Virus record (IMG/VR): IMGVR_UViG_2541047959_000009
Origin: a virus
Taxonomy: Duplodnaviria; Heunggongvirae; Uroviricota; Caudoviricetes
Direction: 5' to 3' (one strand)
Length of the DNA stretch: 64,000 nt
Position 1 is the stretch's first letter. Each line of letters opens with the position of its first letter. Below the pieces are notes generated by a model. The model saw nothing but the letters and a program-made list of their open reading frames with translations. It was not told the origin of the DNA and searched no databases. A program made the translations under genes and the position numbers. Below are positions 12,076 to 62,598 of the stretch, piece after piece.

Positions 12076-13776
12076 ATGGAACACTTAAGACAACTGCAAA
12101 ATAAAACTTCCCTGTTAGAAAAGTACGGGACTAGTAACGCACATCTTTTATGGTCATTAGGTCTTTACTTAGATGAATCCGATTTTGATAAGCTAGCATC
12201 TGATGGACTTACTGATGGTGGAAACGATAAGAAAATAGACTTCATTACCGTAATTAATTCAACGTTATTTATTGCTCAGGGTTACTACTGCAATCAGCAA
12301 GCACTTAAAATAGTTGCGCCTGCAAATAAAGCTTCTGACTTAAACACTGCTTTAGCGTGGATTATGGCAGGCTCAGGAGAGTCTCCAAATGCAAAATTAA
12401 GAGCAAAAATTTCTGAGGTTAGAAAATTAATTGATGATAACGAAATTGAAGCTGTTGAATTATTATATATCCATAATTGTGCCGAATCTGAGCAGGTTAA
12501 AACTGAGCTTGAAACTTGTCGTGACTATCTAGCAGGTAGATTTGCAGACAAAGAAATTGAGGTAACTTACAGAGAACTTGGTGTTAATAGTCTTGAAAAA
12601 TTGTATATTGCGCTATCACAACAAATTGTTGTGACTGACAATATAAAGTTCAATGGCGAACTTATAAATTCTGTACAAGGTGATGGCTGGACTTCACATG
12701 TTGGCTTTGCAAACGGCACTTGGCTAAATTATTTATACAAAAATTATGGAGCAGAATTATTTTCTGCTAATTATAGGGGGTTCATGGGATTAAATAAGAG
12801 AAGAAAAATAAACTCATCAATTAAGAATACCGCAGAAACATCCCCAAAAGACTTCTTTGTCTTTAACAATGGTGTATCAATCCTAACAACAAAATTCAAC
12901 AAAGAAAAAGGGTTGTTGGAAGGAGTTTCAATCATAAATGGAGCTCAAACCACTGGTTCTATTGGTTCAGTTCAAGATATACAAAAATTAGATGGCCTAA
13001 AAGTCCTTTGTAAGGTTATTGAATGTAATGATGCGGACAAAGTAAAAAAAATAGTCCAGTATAATAATACTCAGAATCATATTACAACCTGGGATCACTA
13101 CTCTAACAGCACAGAACAAAAACAGGTGGCAGAAGAATTTTCCACTCTTGGTTATACATATTCACTGAAACGCGGCTTCGAAAATACTGGTTCTTTATTT
13201 GGCATTGAGTCTGTTGCTCAACCGCTGATAGCGTTACATGGGGATTATGTTAGCGCCAATAGAGGTAAAAACTACGTTTTCGATACAAAATCAGCCTATG
13301 ACAATGCCTTTCATGATTCGAAAGCCCAGCATATTTTATGTGCTTACACTATTTCAAAAGCTATAGAAAAAGTAAAATCTCAAATCCGTGCAAAAGAGAA
13401 TAAAATTAAAGTAGATGAGGATAACTTATTATTCCTCCAAAATTTAAAGTCTCGATTCTTTTTAATATCCGTCATCGGAGAAATACTTGAAGAATTAACA
13501 GATAAACCTTTGAACAAGAAGAAAATAAAATATAAATATGATACAGCATTATCTAAAAATAACTCTCTGGATGATTTAATCGACCTTTGGACACCAGTTA
13601 TAACTGCGATATTACCACATGTTATCCGTGTTTCAGGTCAAGATTTAACCACCTACTTATCTGTAACAGACAACCCGTTATCTATCGTATCAAAGGAAGT
13701 TAAAAACATATTAACATCCTTAAAAGCGTTCCAACCGATTGAGCCATTAATTACTCTTTCAAATCACCTTGAATAA
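12076..13776 (+). CDS. hypothetical 566-aa cargo protein at the S-V variable locus (candidate anti-phage defence; family not recognised)
   Basis: Long ORF on the strand opposite the flanking late genes, AT-rich relative to backbone, own upstream region and terminator. Confidence 0.8.
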   Translation: MEHLRQLQNKTSLLEKYGTSNAHLLWSLGLYLDESDFDKLASDGLTDGGNDKKIDFITVINSTLFIAQGYYCNQQALKIVAPANKASDLNTALAWIMAGSGESPNAKLRAKISEVRKLIDDNEIEAVELLYIHNCAESEQVKTELETCRDYLAGRFADKEIEVTYRELGVNSLEKLYIALSQQIVVTDNIKFNGELINSVQGDGWTSHVGFANGTWLNYLYKNYGAELFSANYRGFMGLNKRRKINSSIKNTAETSPKDFFVFNNGVSILTTKFNKEKGLLEGVSIINGAQTTGSIGSVQDIQKLDGLKVLCKVIECNDADKVKKIVQYNNTQNHITTWDHYSNSTEQKQVAEEFSTLGYTYSLKRGFENTGSLFGIESVAQPLIALHGDYVSANRGKNYVFDTKSAYDNAFHDSKAQHILCAYTISKAIEKVKSQIRAKENKIKVDEDNLLFLQNLKSRFFLISVIGEILEELTDKPLNKKKIKYKYDTALSKNNSLDDLIDLWTPVITAILPHVIRVSGQDLTTYLSVTDNPLSIVSKEVKNILTSLKAFQPIEPLITLSNHLE

Positions 13777-30446: not shown

Positions 30447-31079
30447 ATGTTAAACATCAGAATGGGTTCCGATACGGGAGGTAAGGCAGCTATTGAGAGG
30501 CTGCTTGAGGCTTATGGATTCACAACTAAGCAGGCATTAAGCGAGCACCTGAATGTCTCAAAAAGTACTATGGCAAACAGAGTGTTACGTGACAGTTTTC
30601 CTGCTGACTGGATAATTCAGTGTGCACTAGAAACCGGTGTTTCGTTACTTTGGTTAGCCACTGGACAGGGAAGCATGAAAGAAGGATACGAGTCTGAGAA
30701 AAGATCTCATAACGAGAACAAACAAGCAATTAAACCGTTATCCAAACTCATAACTCCATCTATTCCTAAAGGAACCTTGGAAAATGGACAACTCAGTATT
30801 GATGAAGAGATTTTCCTAGACCACAGCATATTACCTGCAGATTATGAAGAATCGATGTTCTTAGAAACCCCTACTGATTGTTATCTCATCGATAAATCAG
30901 TTAAACAAGTCAGCAATGGATTCTGGCTTATCAATATTGATGGAATGATTATTATTGCAAAAATCATGCGGATTCCCGGCAATAAGATTGTAGTAAATCA
31001 AGATGAAGCGTCTTTCGAGTGCTCTGCCGATGATGTGGAAGTTATTGGGCGTGCAGTCAAAGTAATAAAGAGTATCTAA
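30447..31079 (+). CDS. cI: 186-type CI-like immunity repressor
   Basis: 210-aa ORF with N-terminal HTH (TKQALSEHLNVSKSTMANR) plus C-terminal domain; directly upstream of int. Confidence 0.75.
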   Translation: MLNIRMGSDTGGKAAIERLLEAYGFTTKQALSEHLNVSKSTMANRVLRDSFPADWIIQCALETGVSLLWLATGQGSMKEGYESEKRSHNENKQAIKPLSKLITPSIPKGTLENGQLSIDEEIFLDHSILPADYEESMFLETPTDCYLIDKSVKQVSNGFWLINIDGMIIIAKIMRIPGNKIVVNQDEASFECSADDVEVIGRAVKVIKSI

Positions 31080-31081
31080 AC

Positions 31082-32101
31082 ATGACTGTCAGAAAACAGC
31101 CAAACGGTAAATGGTTGTGCGAGTGCTATCCCAATGGACGCAATGGCAAGCGCGTGCGTAAGCAATTTGCTACGAAAGGCGAAGCCATTGCTTTTGAAAG
31201 CTTCACAATGGAAGAAGTGAACAAAAAACCATGGCTGGGGGAAAAGGAAGATCGGCGACACCTATCAGAATTAATTGAGCAGTGGTATTCCCTGTATGGT
31301 CAAACACTCGCAGACCCCAAGCGCCTCATAGCGAAACTTAGAATTATCTGTAATGGTCTAGGCGATCCCATCGCTTCAGAACTGACAGCCGGTGACTTTA
31401 CGAAATACCGCGAAGCACGGTTAAAAGGTGAAGTACGAAATGAAGATGGCACGTTTATGTCGCCCGTTAAGCCCCGCACGGTAAACCTTGAACAGCGCAA
31501 TCTATCATCTGTTTTTGGTACACTGAAAAAGCTGGGCCACTGGTCAGCCCCCAACCCGCTTGCTGGGCTGCCAACATTTAAAATTGCTGAGAGTGAATTG
31601 GCGTTCCTGACCCCGGAAGAAATTAAACGTCTGCTGGATGCCTGCGCCGATTCTCAAAGCTCCAGCCTGCTTTTGATTGCAAAAATATGCCTGGCCACCG
31701 GCGCACGCTGGAGCGAAGCCGAAAACCTGCAGAGTCATCAGGTATCAAAATACCGTATCACTTATACCAAGACCAAAGGCAAGAAAAACCGAACTGTGCC
31801 TATTTCTAAGGATTTATATGAAGAACTGCCTAAGAATAGGGGGAAGTTATTCACCCCATGCAGAAAAGCCTTTGAGCGTGCAGTAAAGCGAGCCGGTTTA
31901 GAACTACCAGAAGGCCAATGTACCCATGTTCTGCGCCATACATTTGCCAGTCATTTTATGATGAACGGTGGAAATATACTGGTACTGCGCGATATTCTTG
32001 GACATGCCGATATAAAAATGACGATGATTTACGCTCATTTTTCCCCAGATCATCTTGAAGATGCAGTAACTAAAAACCCATTAGCAACCTTGATGGATTA
32101 A
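31082..32101 (+). CDS. int: tyrosine integrase
   Basis: 339-aa ORF; C-terminal catalytic region HVLRHTFAS...MIYAH (R, H-x-x-R, Y). Confidence 0.9.
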   Translation: MTVRKQPNGKWLCECYPNGRNGKRVRKQFATKGEAIAFESFTMEEVNKKPWLGEKEDRRHLSELIEQWYSLYGQTLADPKRLIAKLRIICNGLGDPIASELTAGDFTKYREARLKGEVRNEDGTFMSPVKPRTVNLEQRNLSSVFGTLKKLGHWSAPNPLAGLPTFKIAESELAFLTPEEIKRLLDACADSQSSSLLLIAKICLATGARWSEAENLQSHQVSKYRITYTKTKGKKNRTVPISKDLYEELPKNRGKLFTPCRKAFERAVKRAGLELPEGQCTHVLRHTFASHFMMNGGNILVLRDILGHADIKMTMIYAHFSPDHLEDAVTKNPLATLMD

Positions 32102-32105
32102 GCAC

Positions 32106-33329
32106 ATGCGCAACATTATCGAATTAGAACAGATATCGGAAGAACTAAAAAAACATGAACTATTGCAACCCCCATTCATTGCCGAGGGAAAACTAATTTC
32201 TGACTTTTCTAAGAGAGTCGAGTGCTATTTAGAATTAATTGACTCCATTAGAAATAAATATCCTGACAACGAGATAATTAAACAAGTAAAGATTCGCACA
32301 AAATCAATAATATATTTATCTGATAAAATAATAGAAACTCTTAAGCTATTTTTAATAGGAAATGTTAAAGAAGCTTATAAAAAATTCGATTTGGCAATTA
32401 CCAAGTCATCAATGCATACTCATCTTTATAAGATGACTGTTCCTCTAACTAAATTATGCAACCCACACACCCCTTTATTTCGCGTAAGGAAAAGTGAGTG
32501 CATCCTAAAACAAAGAGAAGAATTATTTCATATACCATTTAAAAATAGACATTTAGTTAGCGCACAAAGATTTTCTGTATCCGGTCTTCCATGTTTATAT
32601 CTTGGAACATCAATATTTGTATGTTGGCAAGAAATGGGAAAACCTGACTTTGATAAACTTTACATATCTTCCTTCATATCCGATAAAGAAAATTCAAATA
32701 TAAGAATTTTAGATCTTGGGTACAATTTAACATCTGCACTTCGTACAAAACCGGGAGATCTTTGGTATTCATTCGAACAAGGTTCAGATGATGATTACGA
32801 TCTAAATAATGATAATTTCATGGATCAAATTAATGATAAAATTTCAAAGTTGATTGCATGGCCTTTAGTCCTTGCATGTAACTATACAAAAGATAATGAA
32901 AACGCAAGTTTTAATAAAGAATACATAATACCAAACCTATTAATGCAATGGATTAGTAGTGACAGAAACAAAAATATATCAGGGATATCGTATCGATCAA
33001 CAAAGATATTAAACCAAAAAGATAGCGATATTGGGATTAATGTAATTATCCCCCCAAAAATAGAAAACATAGTTGAAACCAATGATACCCACTGTCCTGT
33101 TTTAAAAAAAATATTTAGAGTTACAAACCCTGTTTCCTGGACTGTGTTTAGTACACTAGAAGCCACCCCCTATCTATACAAAAATAATTTTAATTTTTCG
33201 ACCTATAATCCCGCAAAAGGATGGATTGAAGACTTTGATGAATCCCTTGTTGAACATTATGAAAATACCACTTTTAGAAAAGTTGAACTCCTTATTCATC
33301 AAATGATGAAGTATGAATATTTAAAATAA
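32106..33329 (+). CDS. RES-domain protein (candidate NAD-targeting toxin/abortive-infection effector), 407 aa
   Basis: AT-rich ORF starting 4 nt after int stop; RES-like signature AQRFSVSGLPCLYLGTSIFVCWQE. Confidence 0.6.
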   Translation: MRNIIELEQISEELKKHELLQPPFIAEGKLISDFSKRVECYLELIDSIRNKYPDNEIIKQVKIRTKSIIYLSDKIIETLKLFLIGNVKEAYKKFDLAITKSSMHTHLYKMTVPLTKLCNPHTPLFRVRKSECILKQREELFHIPFKNRHLVSAQRFSVSGLPCLYLGTSIFVCWQEMGKPDFDKLYISSFISDKENSNIRILDLGYNLTSALRTKPGDLWYSFEQGSDDDYDLNNDNFMDQINDKISKLIAWPLVLACNYTKDNENASFNKEYIIPNLLMQWISSDRNKNISGISYRSTKILNQKDSDIGINVIIPPKIENIVETNDTHCPVLKKIFRVTNPVSWTVFSTLEATPYLYKNNFNFSTYNPAKGWIEDFDESLVEHYENTTFRKVELLIHQMMKYEYLK

Positions 33330-33445: not shown

Positions 33446-33490
33446 ATGTAGGAATTTCGGACGCGGGTTCAACTCCCGCCAGCTCCACCA
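33446..33490 (+). other. attachment-site core: 45-nt copy of ssrA (tmRNA) 3' end
   Basis: ATGTAGGAATTTCGGACGCGGGTTCAACTCCCGCCAGCTCCACCA matches the enterobacterial tmRNA 3' terminus; upstream sequence is not tmRNA. Confidence 0.85.
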
Positions 33491-33618
33491 ATCATGATTG
33501 GACGGTGTAAGGACAACACCAACAAAAACAGGAAGTTAGAAGTCTCAGCAGGACACCGACCAGACGGTGAGGAGACATAAAAGGATACGCAAAGGAGCCG
33601 CGGCTCCGAAGTGAAATG

Positions 33619-33646
33619 AAAGCCCGCTGATGCGGGCTTTTTTGCT
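33619..33646 (+). terminator. rho-independent terminator
   Basis: Stem AAGCCCGC/GCGGGCTT followed by TTTTT. Confidence 0.6.
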
Positions 33647-33875: not shown

Positions 33876-34073
33876 ATGGCACTGGACAGTTATGCATCTC
33901 CGAATATTATTCCGGAGCTAAGACAACCGAATGCCGCAGCAGGTAAGATCACGCTAGGGGGGCTGGACAGAATGGCTGTTACGCCCAGTGTGAAGAAAAG
34001 AAGGCTAAGTATGGTAGAATTTCCATACGCACAGACCTTGTTATCCGACTATACAGCCTGGAAGGCACTATGA
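33876..34073 (+). CDS. hypothetical small ORF overlapping start of downstream gene (ATGA)
   Basis: 65-aa ORF, 4-nt overlap suggests translational coupling. Confidence 0.3.
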   Translation: MALDSYASPNIIPELRQPNAAAGKITLGGLDRMAVTPSVKKRRLSMVEFPYAQTLLSDYTAWKAL

Positions 34074-34858
34074 CAAATCTACAACTGGAAGAAAGATTTA
34101 GGGCGCTTGAGAAAGATTACGATGCGCTCATTTCCACAAAATATACTGCGCAGAACGTTCTCACTCACACTATGGAAACCTATGTTGATTCTGGTAAATA
34201 TAAAAACTGGATCGCCAGAGTGAAAAAGTTAATAGAGGACAGCTACGGAAAAGAGTCTGATTATTACAATGACTTCAATACTGTAAACAGCAGGTGGTCT
34301 TCTAATTACAATACACTGATCAAAAGTTATAAACCGTTGTTTGATGCGGCGAGAGATGATCTTGCGCACTCTGCTGTCAGTACTAATACTCCTCAAGAAG
34401 GTTCGCCGCTGAGCCTCGTACTTAATATTCTTAACAGGTTTCCGACCTTTGTTCGCCAGTTAAAGAGGCGGTACAACGGCCGTGCGCCGCTTGAAGTTAA
34501 TGATGAGTATGACGTACAGGATTTGATTTATGCACTGCTGACGCTTCATTTTAATGATATTAGGGCGGAAGAGTATACCCCCAGCTTTGCGGGCGCGGCC
34601 TCAAGACAGGACTTTCTTTTGAAAAAAGAGAAAATTGTGATAGAGGTGAAGAAAACCCGTGAATCTCTGGGAGCGGGTAAAGTTGGTGGAGAGTTGCTTA
34701 TTGATATGGCGCGCTACCGCGCTCACCAAGACTGCGATACGTTGATCTTGTTTGTATATGACCCGGATTGCTACATAAATAATCCTTTGGGCGTGAAAAC
34801 CGATCTGGAATCTAAAGACGCGGAAGGAAAAGTGAAGGTTGTTATTGCGCAGTTCTGA
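34070..34858 (+). CDS. hypothetical protein with C-terminal PD-(D/E)xK-like nuclease motif
   Basis: 262-aa AT-rich ORF; ...RQDFLLKKEKIVIEVKKT... D-x(n)-EVK pattern. Confidence 0.6.
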   Translation: MTNLQLEERFRALEKDYDALISTKYTAQNVLTHTMETYVDSGKYKNWIARVKKLIEDSYGKESDYYNDFNTVNSRWSSNYNTLIKSYKPLFDAARDDLAHSAVSTNTPQEGSPLSLVLNILNRFPTFVRQLKRRYNGRAPLEVNDEYDVQDLIYALLTLHFNDIRAEEYTPSFAGAASRQDFLLKKEKIVIEVKKTRESLGAGKVGGELLIDMARYRAHQDCDTLILFVYDPDCYINNPLGVKTDLESKDAEGKVKVVIAQF

Positions 34859-34945: not shown

Positions 34946-35239
34946 TCATCTTTGCCAGGTCAAATCAAAATCTACGTGAAAATCCGCAGGCTTAAGCTCG
35001 CAACTGCCACCACGCCCAATTAACGACGTTATGTTTACAACGTTTGAACCTGTTGAGATGGCAAGTTGAGTGTCATCTGTAAACGTGATGATTAGCATTT
35101 CAGTCTGATGAACCTGTACTCCAGTTTTCTGAAAACCAATCTGGACAGATTTCACCGTTTTCCCAACCATTTCACGGGCTTGATTGATAGAGTAATTAGC
35201 TTCAACTTGTAGGTCATTCCTGAACTTGGGTAGTGTCAT
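34946..35239 (-). CDS. hypothetical protein
   Basis: 97-aa ORF downstream of GIY-YIG gene on same strand. Confidence 0.4.
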   Translation of the reverse strand: MTLPKFRNDLQVEANYSINQAREMVGKTVKSVQIGFQKTGVQVHQTEMLIITFTDDTQLAISTGSNVVNITSLIGRGGSCELKPADFHVDFDLTWQR

Positions 35240-35449: not shown

Positions 35450-36274
<825 letters not shown>

Positions 36275-37214: not shown

Positions 37215-39164
37215 ATGATTGTTCTAAATCAGATTAACTCCTCACTTTTGTACAATGTCGCTTACAGGTATACCATGAAATCCGAGACGCTAACTGTCCA
37301 ACAACTTTTTCAAGACCGCCGACAATACTGTGTTCCATTCTATCAACGTGCCTATGTATGGACTCAGCAAGACCAGTGGTCAGCTCTACTGGAGGATATC
37401 CTAGAGAAAGTACAATCCCGGCTCTCGGGTACAAAACCAACTCCCCATTTCCTTGGTGCGGTTGTACTGGAACCTCAATCAAAAAAAGGATTATTAGGTG
37501 TAGATTCCATACATATTATTGATGGTCAGCAACGATTGACCACTCTTCAATATGTTCTGGCATCCATCCGATTAGCATTACGTGCTACGGATCTTTCCAG
37601 CTTAGAGGCTCTCATTTCGCCTTGCCTGAAAAACTCAAACGAAGACACAATGCGAAATAAAGAAGTAGAACGCTTCAAACTGTGGCCAACTTTTCGGGAT
37701 CAAACTCATTTTATTCAAAGTTTTAATGTTGAAAATATTGACGATCTCCGGGACGTATTCTCTGATAGTTTCACGCAGCATGGTACGTTGCGTAAGCATT
37801 TTAATCACCCGCCATCACTAGAAGCATTATGTTTTTTTACTGAAGCCTTTATAAAATGGATTAAAATAGAAAACCACTCACCACAAGAAAATGCTGTAGC
37901 TCTAATTGAGGCTGTCTTAACAGATCTGAAACTGGTAAGCATATTTCTCGAAGCTGAAGATGATGCCCAAATAATTTTTGAAACATTAAATGGGCGAGGG
38001 GCGGAACTTCATGCTACGGATCTTATTCGCAACTATATCTTTATGTGCGCTGAGCATGAAAATATTAATGCTATTGAATTATATGAAAATGAGTGGAAGA
38101 GCTTTGAAGATAAATACTGGTCGGAAAAACAACGCCGTGGACGTATTAATAAACCACGCATGGAGTGGCTAGTACATGCGACATTGCAATCAGAAAGGCA
38201 ACGTGAAATTGATCTGTCTCGCCTTTACAATGAGTATCGTGATTATGTAAGTAAGGACTTGTCTTCACAACGAGCAGATCTGCAAGTAAAGCGCCTCAAA
38301 CAATATGCATCACAATATAAAGAATTGGTTGATGGTTTTGGCACAACCCCCATCTCACACTTTGGATATCGCATCGCAGACTATGATGTGACGACACTTT
38401 ATCCGCTTGCTTTGTTCATTTCGATAGCTAACATCGCTGATGATGAGAAAGCAGCCATGTATAATGATCTTGTCTCCTACGTAGTACGAAGAGCCGTATG
38501 TGGCCTGACGCCAAAGAATTACAACAATGTATTTATGAATGTATTGCGGCACTTGGCTAAAACGGAAATTTCCAGTGTTGAGTTACGTAATATCCTCAAT
38601 AACTTAAATGGCGAAGCCTCACGTTGGCCTGGTGACTCAGAATTTCTCAACGCTTGCATCAATGCTCCACTTTATCCTGGCAGGCTCGACGCACCGAAAA
38701 TGCGCTCAATGTTAACGGAACTTGAAAGAGAACTTTGTCGCCAAGTAAAGACAGAAAAGCCTGATGTTCCAAATCTTTCTAATCTCGATATCGATCATCT
38801 TATGCCTCAAAGTTGGTATTCCTGTTGGCCTCTCGAAAATGGTCGTATGGTGACAAATTCAGATGCTACGGTATTGAACCAAATTGTTCTGTCTGGAACC
38901 GATCTTACCCCTGAACAGCTACTGGTAAGGAAACGGCAACAAGCGATATCTACTTTGGGAAATCTAACTTTGCTTAACCTTAGCGTAAACCGTTCTGTTC
39001 AGAATGCTGTATTTCTGAAAAAACGTGATGCTCTCATCGTCCACACCAATCTACGACTGAACATTCCACTTATAGTTAAGGATAAATGGGATGAGGATGA
39101 AATCCTGGAGCGGGGTAAAAAGTTGGGGGAAATTGCATTGAAAGTATGGCCAAAACACGATTAA
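37215..39164 (+). CDS. GmrSD-family putative type IV restriction endonuclease (DUF262 + DUF1524/HNH-like)
   Basis: 649-aa AT-rich ORF; N-terminal PFYQRAYVW and IIDGQQR (DUF262/ParB-like), C-terminal DIDHLMPQSW (His-Me finger). Confidence 0.8.
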   Translation: MIVLNQINSSLLYNVAYRYTMKSETLTVQQLFQDRRQYCVPFYQRAYVWTQQDQWSALLEDILEKVQSRLSGTKPTPHFLGAVVLEPQSKKGLLGVDSIHIIDGQQRLTTLQYVLASIRLALRATDLSSLEALISPCLKNSNEDTMRNKEVERFKLWPTFRDQTHFIQSFNVENIDDLRDVFSDSFTQHGTLRKHFNHPPSLEALCFFTEAFIKWIKIENHSPQENAVALIEAVLTDLKLVSIFLEAEDDAQIIFETLNGRGAELHATDLIRNYIFMCAEHENINAIELYENEWKSFEDKYWSEKQRRGRINKPRMEWLVHATLQSERQREIDLSRLYNEYRDYVSKDLSSQRADLQVKRLKQYASQYKELVDGFGTTPISHFGYRIADYDVTTLYPLALFISIANIADDEKAAMYNDLVSYVVRRAVCGLTPKNYNNVFMNVLRHLAKTEISSVELRNILNNLNGEASRWPGDSEFLNACINAPLYPGRLDAPKMRSMLTELERELCRQVKTEKPDVPNLSNLDIDHLMPQSWYSCWPLENGRMVTNSDATVLNQIVLSGTDLTPEQLLVRKRQQAISTLGNLTLLNLSVNRSVQNAVFLKKRDALIVHTNLRLNIPLIVKDKWDEDEILERGKKLGEIALKVWPKHD

Positions 39165-58999: not shown

Positions 59000-59101
59000 T
59001 TAAAGTGGGATCTAACTCTAATAATTTAAAAAATTTAATTGGGTCTTGATATTAATCACATAGACTCAATGCTCTTTAGTTCTTACATAGGTGGTTGTAT
59101 T

Positions 59102-59542
59102 ATGAGTATCCCCAGTTTAGATGTTCATAAAGTTGTTAAGTGCGCAGAGCATAAAAAGGCTTTAGATGCAATATCTCTCAAACTTAAGAATAACATTATT
59201 GACTCAAGCTCTGAATACGATTTTCTTGGCGACACAATAATTTTCAATAAAGATAAAAAAAATAGGTTAACCCTCAAACTTTCAACATATGAACTAGAAC
59301 TTATTTTCAAAGAAACACTGCTAGTCATTGATGAAGCTCCTGTATTGAAGTTTGCTGCCATTGACCCAACCGATGAAAATAACAACGAGCTGATTGATTT
59401 ATTTTTATCCAAAGGTGGATTTATTTATATTAGAGAATACAAATCCGAGCCACATTATGAGTATGGCGACACTTCTCTATTTTTACATATACTTGACGCT
59501 ACTCTTAAAGAGCTTAAATCTGCAAACAAAATATCCTATTAA
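59102..59542 (+). CDS. hypothetical AT-rich moron protein
   Basis: ORF 59039-59542 trimmed to MSIPSLD Met; opposite strand to all flanking phage genes. Confidence 0.55.
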   Translation: MSIPSLDVHKVVKCAEHKKALDAISLKLKNNIIDSSSEYDFLGDTIIFNKDKKNRLTLKLSTYELELIFKETLLVIDEAPVLKFAAIDPTDENNNELIDLFLSKGGFIYIREYKSEPHYEYGDTSLFLHILDATLKELKSANKISY

Positions 59543-59648
59543 ATAAATTTTTGCTAACATAGCCCCGCGCCATGACAAGATTTTCTGTTCTAGATGCAAG
59601 GGCTATGTGTGAATATCTATAAACAAAAACCCCATCCGGTGATTTTTG

Positions 59649-59873
59649 TCATTTTTTAGCCATCTCAATTGCGGCATCAAAAAGTCGTTCAAGAATAAAA
59701 TCAGGGTACTGTAATTTTTCTTGCTCGATATGAAGCTCATAAATTTTCCCTTCCCACTCCCATTTAAAATTAAATCCAGAAGCAGAAGGTGCGAAATGTG
59801 TTTTAGCTTTAGGGTTAGCGTAACCAGCAACAGTCAACACATCAAACTTAAAATCTTGAGGTTTAATACGCAT
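59649..59873 (-). CDS. hypothetical AT-rich small protein
   Basis: ORF 59649-59900, convergent with 59102-59542. Confidence 0.45.
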   Translation of the reverse strand: MRIKPQDFKFDVLTVAGYANPKAKTHFAPSASGFNFKWEWEGKIYELHIEQEKLQYPDFILERLFDAAIEMAKK

Positions 59874-59970
59874 AATCATATCCTTTGCCAAGTTCATCAT
59901 TATTCTTCTCGATTATAAAACAATGAATAAAATCATTAAAGCATAGACGTTAAATATCCTCAAAATGTGA

Positions 59971-60408
59971 TTAGTTGGGACATTGCGTCCTGATATACTC
60001 CTGCAAGTAATTGACCTGTGAGGTTATCTTGTCGATTCCACTTCGGAGACGGTAATAATGGAGTTCAGCATCTGCTGTAAGTCTAGGGCTTTCTCCATCG
60101 CCCATGCCGCTGGCTCCGGTCGTTGACTTTGTACAGGTGGCGGCGACTTGCAGGCGCTTATGCCCAGCAGAAACATCAGCACGAAGACTTTCGATAGTCG
60201 CATTAGCATCAGCAAGCTCCTTTGTATATCTGGCATCGAGTTCAGCTACATTACGTTGACGCTTCTGCATATCAGCGATGATGGATGTGGCTTTATCGCG
60301 CTGTACTTTGTAGACGATGGCGTCATCACGGTAATTATCAACAGCCCATGACAAGCAGACGATGATGCAGATAACCAGAGCGGATATAATCACCGTTACT
60401 CTGCTCAT
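59971..60408 (-). CDS. Rz: Rz-like i-spanin
   Basis: 145-aa ORF near-identical in pattern to lambda Rz ([22 protein letters not shown]). Confidence 0.85.
60024..60209 (-). CDS. Rz1: Rz1-like o-spanin lipoprotein
   Basis: Embedded ORF in +1 frame of Rz with lipobox LLGISAC and Pro-rich region. Confidence 0.6.
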
Positions 60409-60881: not shown

Positions 60882-61173
60882 TTTTCACCCCTGTCAGTCG
60901 TTCCCAGAAGTACGTCAGTGCAACCGAACCCATCGCACCACTAATCCCCGCAGTTGCGAGAATCATGTAAATACTGAATCCACTTTCGATACTGATTAGG
61001 CCACCAATAACACCGGTGAATCCTGATACAACTATCTGAGCGAGGGCATTTATCCAGCTCCACGTTGCTTTACTCTGCTTCACATCAATCAGGTAACGGA
61101 CAAGCCCCCCCCAACCTGCGATGATCAGCAAAACAAGCCAGAACGCTCCGGCAAGATTCTCTTTTTCGTGCAT
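60868..61173 (-). CDS. S: holin
   Basis: ORF 60868-61272 trimmed to MHEKENL Met; three hydrophobic segments; directly upstream of endolysin. Confidence 0.7.
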   Translation of the reverse strand: MHEKENLAGAFWLVLLIIAGWGGLVRYLIDVKQSKATWSWINALAQIVVSGFTGVIGGLISIESGFSIYMILATAGISGAMGSVALTYFWERLTGVKNAKS

Positions 61174-61290
61174 ATGAATAGCCGCAGTTTCGCCTCCGAC
61201 AGAAAATCGGAGCGTGAAATGATATGTTGATTTATTATTAATTCGAAAATTACATTCTAATTCATCAGGCATTGATGATTTTATAATAAT

Positions 61291-61313
61291 AAAGGCCGTT
61301 CGTTACGGCCTTT
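61291..61313 (-). terminator. hairpin terminator after acidic moron gene
   Basis: 8-bp stem AAAGGCCG/CGGCCTTT with 7-nt loop. Confidence 0.5.
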
Positions 61314-61324
61314 ATTATTGATAT

Positions 61325-61660
61325 TTATTTTACATCCCAAGGTAGTTCCTCAAGAGAGAAGACTAATTCATTATCAATAATTTCGTATTCTGCATAACCT
61401 TCAACCTCTCCTGAGAAGTTATTGTCAACGCATCCTTCATAATAGCTATATGGTGCTATAAAGTGAAACCCATATTCATCTATCTCTGTGATTTCAAAAT
61501 TGTAGTAATCGTAAGAATATCGAATATCATCATCAGAAATAGAACTAAGTACATAGTTATTAAATTTATCGGAATGCTTAACGATAAGTTCTGACAACGC
61601 GTCAAGATTCTCTGGAGAGATATTTCCTAACGGTAATCTGTACTCAACGGCATTAATCAT
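61325..61660 (-). CDS. hypothetical highly acidic 111-aa protein (moron at Q-S junction)
   Basis: AT-rich ORF with ~27 Asp/Glu versus ~6 Lys/Arg; between Q-like gene and holin. Confidence 0.6.
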   Translation of the reverse strand: MINAVEYRLPLGNISPENLDALSELIVKHSDKFNNYVLSSISDDDIRYSYDYYNFEITEIDEYGFHFIAPYSYYEGCVDNNFSGEVEGYAEYEIIDNELVFSLEELPWDVK

Positions 61661-61713
61661 ACAACCTCCTTTTTAACTGATATGAGGTTATATAATGTGT
61701 TTCAGTACAAGTA

Positions 61714-61739
61714 AATAAAAACCCGCTCAACAGCGGGTT
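61714..61739 (-). terminator. tR'-like terminator downstream of Q-like gene
   Basis: Stem ACCCGC/GCGGGT followed on minus strand by TTTTATTT. Confidence 0.55.
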
Positions 61740-61845
61740 CGTGAAAATTATCAACGGCAGACATACAAAGCCCATCGTTGAGAAAATCTTATCCATATTT
61801 TTTGAAAAATGCAAGCTTCATGTCACTATCTTCGGCGAAAATCAC

Positions 61846-62598
61846 TTATCTCGTCACCTTTCTCAATTGTGTTTCAGCATATGCTTCTTCCTGCCAGCAC
61901 TTTGTTACTAGTTTATCAATTACGTCTGCATATCCTTTGTACCACTGATAATCAGTCAGGTCTGGAACCAGCTTCTGGACATGACGTCGTGCCAGTGTAG
62001 TCGGTAAACGGCTAAACCGGTTTCCATTGCAACGCCCACAAGTCTTATAAACAGGCGTGCCATGAAGCCGGGTTCTTTTTTCATCCAGGACAATACCTTT
62101 ACCCTTACACCCTCTGCACGCCGTGCTGACTTCTCCCTTGCCATGACAATGCTGACACAGTTCCTTCACCCACTCTTCTTTGATAACGGATTCCCCGCTT
62201 CTGGAATGTTTCACCACTTCGCGCAATACATTATGAAATCCAGTACCAGTACAATGCTCACAGCGAGCCTTACTTGCCGCAGACCTGGAATAATCAGCAA
62301 AGGCAAAATTCACAAGGTAAGGGATGATCTGTAACCGGGTTTCTTCACTCAATTTGTTCAATGTCGGGTTATCCAGTGCCATCGCGTAATTGAGCAGGCC
62401 TTCAATCGCAAACTGAGGATCCTGAACACCAACTTTTGCCAGGAATAAGGCAAACCCAAGCGGTGCTTTCGACTGCACCATCCCCTGCGCAGCCATTACA
62501 TCCGTAATTGTTAAACCACCCGAGCCTGTCGCCGATGCGTCATCGCTCAATTTTGGAGATTTTGGGGAGTAATATTTCGGTAAGGCTTCAAGGTTCAT
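61846..62598 (-). CDS. putative late-gene antiterminator (Q-like) with DnaJ-type zinc finger
   Basis: ORF 61846-62640; four CxxCxGxG repeats; position immediately upstream of the lysis cassette. Confidence 0.5.
   Translation of the reverse strand: MNLEALPKYYSPKSPKLSDDASATGSGGLTITDVMAAQGMVQSKAPLGFALFLAKVGVQDPQFAIEGLLNYAMALDNPTLNKLSEETRLQIIPYLVNFAFADYSRSAASKARCEHCTGTGFHNVLREVVKHSRSGESVIKEEWVKELCQHCHGKGEVSTACRGCKGKGIVLDEKRTRLHGTPVYKTCGRCNGNRFSRLPTTLARRHVQKLVPDLTDYQWYKGYADVIDKLVTKCWQEEAYAETQLRKVTR

Follow-up and report, generated by a model that had tools for sequence, protein, structure and literature searches.

Introduction

RES toxins form a large family of nicotinamide adenine dinucleotide (NAD+) phosphorylases, and their natural role is unsettled. 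The type II toxins MbcT, NatT, P. putida Res and KnaT are about 150-250 amino acids (aa) long and are encoded with an Xre antitoxin in toxin-antitoxin (TA) operons. R27, R47 and Y58 are indispensable to MbcT, which also depends in part on E69 but not on S126 (PMC6436930). The RES clade carries an R-Y-N signature, and this type, which has no catalytic ARTT glutamate, has been linked to NAD+ phosphorolysis (Iyer et al.; PMC9503650). NatT is not toxic alone and needs activation, and thus provides an earlier example of a RES enzyme kept in check; according to the same 2024 study no RES module had so far been implicated in immunity (PMC11535050). Defences already known to deplete NAD+ do so with TIR domains or, as DSR2 does, with SIR2 domains. 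Here, we analyzed a 64,000-nucleotide stretch of Escherichia coli S88 DNA (IMG/VR record IMGVR_UViG_2541047959_000009; referred to as the window), in which a P2/186-like prophage ends with the gene for a 407-aa RES-fold protein (WP_001244285.1). Window positions equal those of the genome record NC_011742.1 minus 2,798,890. We propose that this protein is a lysogen-expressed, autoinhibited, antitoxin-less NAD+-consuming abortive-infection effector, and estimate the probability of this reading as a whole at about 0.55.

Compared with the RES-Xre toxins, the S88 protein is longer, adds an N-terminal helical domain, a variable insert of about 50 aa and a C-terminal region, stays below the Pfam RES threshold and has no adjacent Xre/COG5642 antitoxin gene. 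Its family occurs as prophage cargo and in defence islands, whereas the toxins reside in TA operons. The 'Flap' subgroup to which NatT belongs resembles it in that a RES core carries an inserted regulatory element; unlike the S88 protein, NatT has a separate antitoxin, NatR, and is encoded in the P. aeruginosa core genome and absent from enterobacteria (PMC11535050). A second group of relevant systems comprises DSR2, the TIR effectors and CapRel(SJ46), which, like the S88 protein, unite a toxic catalytic domain and variable non-catalytic regions in one polypeptide and are borne on prophages or islands. The expected outcome would be the same, namely abortive infection by loss of an essential metabolite, while the fold differs, being RES/ADP-ribosyltransferase (ART) here and SIR2, TIR or RelA-SpoT there. 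CapRel(SJ46) is a fused toxin-antitoxin sensor, and its likeness to the S88 protein is drawn from general knowledge; the extra domain of a CapRel-like protein is homologous to the cognate antitoxin, and no such homology could be detected here.

Fold and family assignment of the 407-aa protein

A search with the S88 protein against Pfam gave a weak match to RES (PF08808; 12.2 bits, E 0.19), which covered aa 141-205 and profile positions 11-75 of 157 and fell below the gathering score of 23.2 bits. The same weak match recurred in 20 of 31 homologs, in which it was the commonest weak match (best E 0.0045). Distant members and YopC of phage SPbeta matched most of the profile, with scores of up to 22.4 bits (E 1.4e-4), and distant relatives could be aligned to it as far as position 135. 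The best structural matches were the NAD+ phosphorylases MbcT and NatT, and the model has the RES/ART fold of the RES clade within the ADP-ribosyltransferase superfamily. As the Pfam threshold was not reached, the link to RES rests on the fold and on the family-level evidence; on these grounds we assign the RES fold with high confidence, and from the sequence the core is probably an active, if divergent, RES/ART-fold enzyme.

The earlier note on this DNA had been drawn to the gene by an R...G..LYLGTS.....WQE pattern that resembled the RES domain. The motif is present and runs from R155 to E176 (AQ-R155-FSVS-G160-LPC-L164-Y165-L166-G167-T168-S169-IFVC-W174-Q175-E176). The proposed resemblance failed the Pfam check but was borne out by the fold and by the family as a whole. 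The domain call itself is not new, since UniRef already labels B7MJK4 a 'RES domain-containing protein' and the homolog in phage Cartapus is annotated as a 'putative RES protein'.

YopC belongs to the same family (29% identity, E 4e-34) and is likewise phage-borne. Unlike the S88 protein it has 442 aa, is encoded in the middle of a 134-kilobase (kb) phage genome and has a small helix-turn-helix (HTH) gene, yopB, upstream. No reported function for YopC was found in the literature.

Domain architecture and spread of the family

Sequence conservation is distributed unevenly along the protein. The two halves of the core showed a mean identity of 66% and 59%, while the remaining segments were far more variable, at 33% (N-terminal domain), 32% (C-terminal region) and 23% (insert). 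The insert contained many indels, and the predicted local distance difference test score (pLDDT) of the model dropped below 50 for aa 217-235. Many distant relatives matched the family profile only to about position 345. Searching 1.84 billion cluster representatives (clusters at 50% identity) with this profile returned a family of 2,730 clusters, 1,136 of them at E <= 1e-30, whose members nearly all measured 350-460 aa and matched over near-full length. The 'unusual architecture' described in the earlier note is therefore unusual in comparison with canonical RES-Xre toxins, but is otherwise the standard conserved layout, at about 360-420 aa, of a very large family spread over many phyla. One exceptional member, P0148 (L009:3522-5357, 611 aa), has its C-terminal region swapped for an LlaMI/MvaI-type restriction endonuclease (REase) domain (Pfam 2.8e-42).

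Among species-representative genomes, family members were found in Enterobacteriaceae, Aeromonas, Marinomonas, many Bacteroidota and Bacillota, Planctomycetota, Acidobacteriota, Desulfobacterota and Spirochaetota. The Bacteroidota relatives include soil and gut taxa, and about 30 large Bacillus-group plasmids bear relatives; for several distant members, the metagenomic surroundings covered too little sequence to inform. The family is rare in E. coli, with at least 30 positive genomes among 5,426 complete ones by blastn, three of which carry the exact S88 allele.

This distribution bears on whether the gene might instead serve host fitness or virulence, as a conversion gene in E. coli and Salmonella pathogens, or be a passenger that is catalytically inert and under no selection for function. 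S88 is pathogenic, near-identical copies are common in Salmonella enterica, and relatives also occur in the conversion phage SopE-phi. Furthermore, the gene A homolog of the S88 prophage (replication endonuclease, window 24959-27399, minus strand) is frameshifted according to RefSeq. A pathogen-specific role is at odds with the breadth of the family, which takes in Bacteroidota of soil and gut as well as Bacillota, Planctomycetota and others; conversion is further countered by the 407-aa sequence, in which no signal peptide or membrane segment was visible, and an inert passenger by 16 columns that are strictly conserved across 24-70% identity. We consider either variant very improbable. The prophage itself may be replication-defective with its cargo genes intact, given the frameshift in gene A.

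Candidate catalytic residues

The sequence of MbcT was checked against 6FKG, and a profile of its subfamily was built from members at least 50% identical to it. Comparison of the family core with this narrow profile in hhalign resulted in a 21-column local match (E 1.1e-3, probability 20%), which pairs LPCLY165LGTSIFVCWQE176 with FPAIY58LADSAQACMVE69 and places Y165 opposite Y58 and E176 opposite E69 of MbcT. Both counterparts are conserved in the family. In a permissive alignment of low confidence, Y/F125-R126 fell on Y26-R27 and Q-R155-F-S157 on G-R47-W-N49, and the spacing R155-10-Y165-11-E176 is close to the R47-11-Y58-11-E69 of MbcT.

Across an alignment of 38 sequences that extends down to 24% identity, R128, R155, S157, Y165 and E176 were invariant, and R126, S169 and N312 were retained in at least 90%. 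N312 lies on a predicted strand, which fits the R-Y-N signature of the RES clade.

RES-fold enzymes can also be protein ADP-ribosyltransferases, as is ParT, so depletion of NAD+ is not the sole possible chemistry. The main rival on this point is that the core ADP-ribosylates a macromolecule, as ParT does with Prs and DarT with DNA; a host or phage protein or nucleic acid would be modified, and the outcome would be exclusion or lysogenic conversion in a cell that is not necessarily killed. We hold this to be unlikely because the model came closest in structure to the NAD+ phosphorylases MbcT and NatT, and because the protein appears to be of the R-Y-N type with no catalytic ARTT glutamate identified, as in NAD+ phosphorolysis (PMC9503650). 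The REase fusion in P0148 is a single case. In consumption of NAD+ as the chemistry of the S88 protein we have moderate confidence, at roughly even odds.

A variable slot between int and attP holds the gene as cargo

The 407-aa open reading frame (ORF) begins with ATG and is annotated by RefSeq as a hypothetical protein. By its sequence it is a real gene and not a chance ORF, as it has at least 296 homologs with conserved columns, a full-length match to PHROG 7835 (4.8e-180) and a RefSeq annotation. Its position at the prophage end was as the earlier note had described it: the ORF is AT-rich, follows the int stop codon after four nucleotides (nt; GCAC) and stops about 115 base pairs, by our count 116 nt, before a copy of the ssrA 3' end that serves as att site. 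The guanine-plus-cytosine (GC) content was 0.314 in window positions 32001-33000, compared with 0.47 in the preceding kb, which holds int, and about 0.55 in the prophage structural genes. The S88 genome has the intact ssrA, with a 3' end identical to the att copy, 607 nt to the left of window position 1; from the positions of these two sites the prophage measures about 34.1 kb. Inside the window no transfer-messenger or transfer RNA gene was found with ARAGORN and Rfam.

The order cI, int, RES-like gene, attP was the same in free phages (Cartapus, RE-2010) and in prophages. Among 80 IMG/VR loci bearing a family member, 77 had an int 90-96% identical to that of the window, and in 74 the RES-like gene came directly after such an int. 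The alleles in these loci were mostly just 38-60% identical. When the S88 region was compared with three prophages carrying near-identical cI and int genes, nucleotide identity was 0.9-1.0, decreased to about 0.75 at the end of int and dropped to 0.34-0.46 exactly from the int stop codon; it recovered to 0.61-0.73 over the catalytic core only and rose again at the att core. The gene diversifies like a cassette between conserved flanks.

In sister prophages of E. coli, cI and int are the same (92-96% nucleotide identity), but unrelated cargo is found between int and att. The WL297 slot (L004:4222-5777) encodes a dCTP-deaminase/dUTPase-like protein (Pfam DCD 5.9e-15) and ThyX (2.6e-48), and those of AF5 (L005:4210-4878) and CEA212U (L006) encode a 222-aa protein with a faint match to 1TM-TIR in PADLOC (E 0.007). 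The site thus has the conserved flanks and interchangeable, unrelated contents of a cargo hotspot, and we regard the RES-like gene with high confidence as stand-alone cargo of this variable slot. A role as recombination directionality factor or integrase accessory was considered and rejected, as the slot also holds unrelated genes and the family occurs far from integrases.

In Rousset et al. (2022; PMC9122126), the anti-phage hotspots of P2 and P4 elements likewise have conserved flanks and interchangeable low-GC cargo in P2-family prophages. The slot described here is int-attP, unlike the hotspot reported there for Vibrio P2 relatives, which lies between cI and int. One family locus departs from the common order and matches that Vibrio position: in L089 (4395-6932), the family gene precedes int (53% identity) instead of following it and has a cI homolog (40% identity) on its other side. 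No published description of the int-attP slot as a hotspot was found.

Other low-GC genes are present in the same prophage. Two ORFs with a GC content of 0.34-0.36, at 12076-13776 (plus strand, 566 aa) and 22642-24051 (minus strand, 469 aa), gave no match to PDB sequences. Rousset and colleagues are said to have placed hotspots of E. coli P2-like phages at the tin/old and Z/fun positions, and the two ORFs are situated at positions corresponding to these. At the other prophage end, between ssrA and ogr (S88 record 2798408-2798890, just left of the window), a 160-aa BRCT-domain protein is encoded; phage Cartapus has at this position a gene annotated as a 'putative exonuclease' (L002:5467-5949). 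This site may be another cargo slot beside attP.

Association with defence genes

In many cases outside prophages, the family gene was tightly packed with known defence genes. The 99 immediate neighbours of at least 120 aa from 67 species-level loci were all compared with PADLOC at a cut-off of E <= 1e-10, and at least about 15 of them were defence proteins. These comprised three Avs2, two type IV REases (mREase_IV), two type I REases, two to three ThsB/TIR proteins, two PDC-S66, two mad2 and one each of a type IIG restriction-modification (RM) protein, DrmD and PDC-S46. According to Pfam, seven integrases and several transposases were among the same 99 neighbours.

Individual loci illustrate this arrangement. 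In three Flavobacterium species, a full-length Avs2 was located 3' of the family gene and a STAND-like AAA+TPR protein 5' of it. Upstream of the family gene there was a type I HsdR in a planctomycete, the DISARM protein DrmD in a Bacteroidales genome and a GmrSD/HEC-06 enzyme in Pedobacter. The gene for the REase fusion protein P0148 directly follows a Gabija-like pair, an OLD-type ATPase/TOPRIM gene and a UvrD-like helicase gene (L009). Family members recur beside defence genes and in mobile-element hotspots; as the count has no matched control, the association is suggestive and not a measured enrichment. This genomic pattern fits a defence role of the family, in which we have moderate confidence, slightly better than even.

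Absence of an antitoxin partner

The earlier note had seen no antitoxin-like gene next to the ORF, and this applied to the locus and to the family alike. At the S88 locus, no plausible small ORF was found between int, the 407-aa ORF and att. No neighbour family recurred across 80 species-level loci, and in none of these was an HTH-like ORF found directly upstream on the same strand, a search of limited sensitivity. In SPbeta (L007:2348-4011), yopB (75 aa, HTH_26 3.6e-17) lies 108 nt 5' of yopC and the two resemble an Xre-RES pair; within the family this arrangement was an isolated exception.

Two candidates for an antitoxin in disguise were examined and discarded. The repressor gene cI is found whatever the cargo and cannot be regarded as a dedicated partner, as it is also present in the sister prophages with unrelated cargo. 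The N-terminal domain showed no detectable similarity that would make it a fused Xre-type antitoxin.

The question of a partner bears on a further explanation, according to which the protein is a toxin for prophage maintenance (addiction) or persistence, neutralized either in cis or by some factor of the prophage, for instance cI, so that prophage loss, induction or stress would lead to cell arrest. All characterized RES toxins belong to TA modules tied to plasmid stability or persistence, the RES-like gene probably shares an operon with cI, an Xre-class HTH repressor, and yopB directly precedes yopC in SPbeta. Nevertheless, no dedicated antitoxin recurs in the 80 loci, cI accompanies unrelated cargo, and the extreme divergence of alleles at a conserved flank together with the Avs2, RM and DISARM neighbours fits an arms race better. 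Addiction appears quite improbable to us.

Proposed mechanism

Phage 186 transcribes cI and int together from pL. In the S88 lysogen, the RES-like gene would be read through from the cI-int transcript. No promoter signal above chance was found for the ORF and no terminator before att, which together with the four-nt gap is consistent with such read-through. Co-transcription with cI-int had been proposed before, and nothing in the locus contradicts it; expression in the lysogen itself we infer from this arrangement. A RES enzyme that is made constitutively with no antitoxin must be held off in some way, and a single-chain, autoinhibited effector is therefore proposed. The variable N-terminal helical domain, the insert and/or the C-terminal region would keep the protein inactive in cis. 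Upon infection by another phage, a variable part may sense a phage product and release the conserved catalytic core, which would then consume NAD+ and abort the infection; like that of MbcT and NatT, the reaction would be a phosphorolysis or hydrolysis.

Several results weigh against this proposal. At the level of fold, besides the subthreshold Pfam score, the 407-aa protein had no match in NCBIfam; a search of PDB sequences with the family profile (full length or core only) and with a distant member returned nothing relevant, and a Foldseek search of the whole model against PDB and BFVD gave nothing significant. At the level of the active site, the profile-profile match to the narrow MbcT subfamily is short and weak, the loop that holds R155 was modelled with low pLDDT, and equating R126 with R27 and R155 with R47 relies on the low-confidence alignment and on spacing. 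No similarity to an Xre/MbcA-type antitoxin was found in the N-terminal domain, which makes inhibition in cis purely conjectural. PADLOC-DB v2.0.0 contained no match for the 407-aa protein, YopC or P0225, and the neighbour count, besides its missing control, includes a first ten that were picked for size. Some genes of the S88 prophage may be decaying, as indicated by the frameshift in gene A, and the alternative ADP-ribosyltransferase chemistry has been discussed above. The function as a whole is put forward as a proposal.

Features of the prophage end and of the adjacent region

The coordinates of the prophage end and of the segments of the protein are given in Table 1.

Table 1. Position of the features at the right end of the S88 prophage and of the segments of the 407-aa protein (window coordinates).
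Feature	Position	Strand	Details
Phage repressor protein CI (RefSeq)	30447..31079	+	Pfam Phage_CI_repr 1.7e-30, Phage_CI_C 7.2e-31
Tyrosine integrase, ssrA-specific, 186/Fels-2 type	31082..32101	+	Pfam Int_N 1.1e-28, Phage_integrase 6.4e-26; conserved flank on the left of the cargo slot
407-aa stand-alone RES-fold protein	32106..33329 (including stop codon)	+	WP_001244285.1; UniProt B7MJK4
N-terminal helical domain, aa 1-110	32106..32435	+	Hypervariable; modelled with high confidence; proposed regulatory/sensor module
RES/ART core, first half, aa 111-200	32436..32705	+	R126/R128, H142, R148, R155, S157, Y165, S169, W174, E176
Hypervariable insert, aa 201-250	32706..32855	+	Acidic in the S88 allele (EQGSDDDYDLNNDNF)
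RES/ART core, second half, aa 251-350	32856..33155	+	EYIIPN (E272, Y273), GISYRSTK (S298, T299), INVIIPP (N312)
Variable C-terminal region, aa 351-407	33156..33326	+	Two predicted helices, aa 377-383 and 389-400
attR	33446..33490	+	Exact copy (45 nt) of the 3' end of ssrA; right border of the prophage; flanks the cargo slot on the right
Terminator-like hairpin	33618..33641	+	First one 3' of the 407-aa ORF; outside the prophage

Directly right of attR, a low-GC island that is separate from the prophage extends from window position 33491 to about 41000. It encodes a DpnII/MboI-type PD-(D/E)XK nuclease (34070-34858, plus strand; PADLOC Aga_Helical-REase-like, 1e-26), which is followed by a 97-aa ORF (34946-35239, minus strand) and a PD-T4-3 GIY-YIG protein (35450-36256, minus strand; PADLOC 9.8e-136). 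A DinI pseudogene, a DUF262 protein (about 37275-39164, plus strand) and a recombinase fragment are also present, and the tail-fibre genes of another prophage remnant come next. From the contents of the prophage and of this island, ssrA bears a tandem array of mobile defence cargo. Further low-GC stretches were located at 59001-60000 (0.33) and 61001-62000 (0.38) amid sequence with a GC content of 0.55.

Significance

Literature searches turned up no work on the family or on YopC, and none that places a RES protein in phage defence. While the domain label already exists, the stand-alone family, its behaviour in a hotspot and its association with defence genes appear to be undescribed. It is possible, though we put it forward tentatively and at less than even odds, that the S88 protein represents the first RES-fold immune protein, in which a RES core that destroys NAD+ is combined with hypervariable sensor or autoinhibitory modules and no antitoxin, in a family that occurs in defence islands of at least seven phyla and is the dominant, fast-diversifying cargo of the enterobacterial int-attP slot. 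If this holds true, RES would be the third NADase fold in bacterial immunity, beside TIR and SIR2, and the family would be a natural case of a RES enzyme that is controlled without an antitoxin. RES toxins, whose physiological role is debated, would gain a clear role in immunity, and the int-attP slot of 186-type prophages would be a further place to mine for defence genes.

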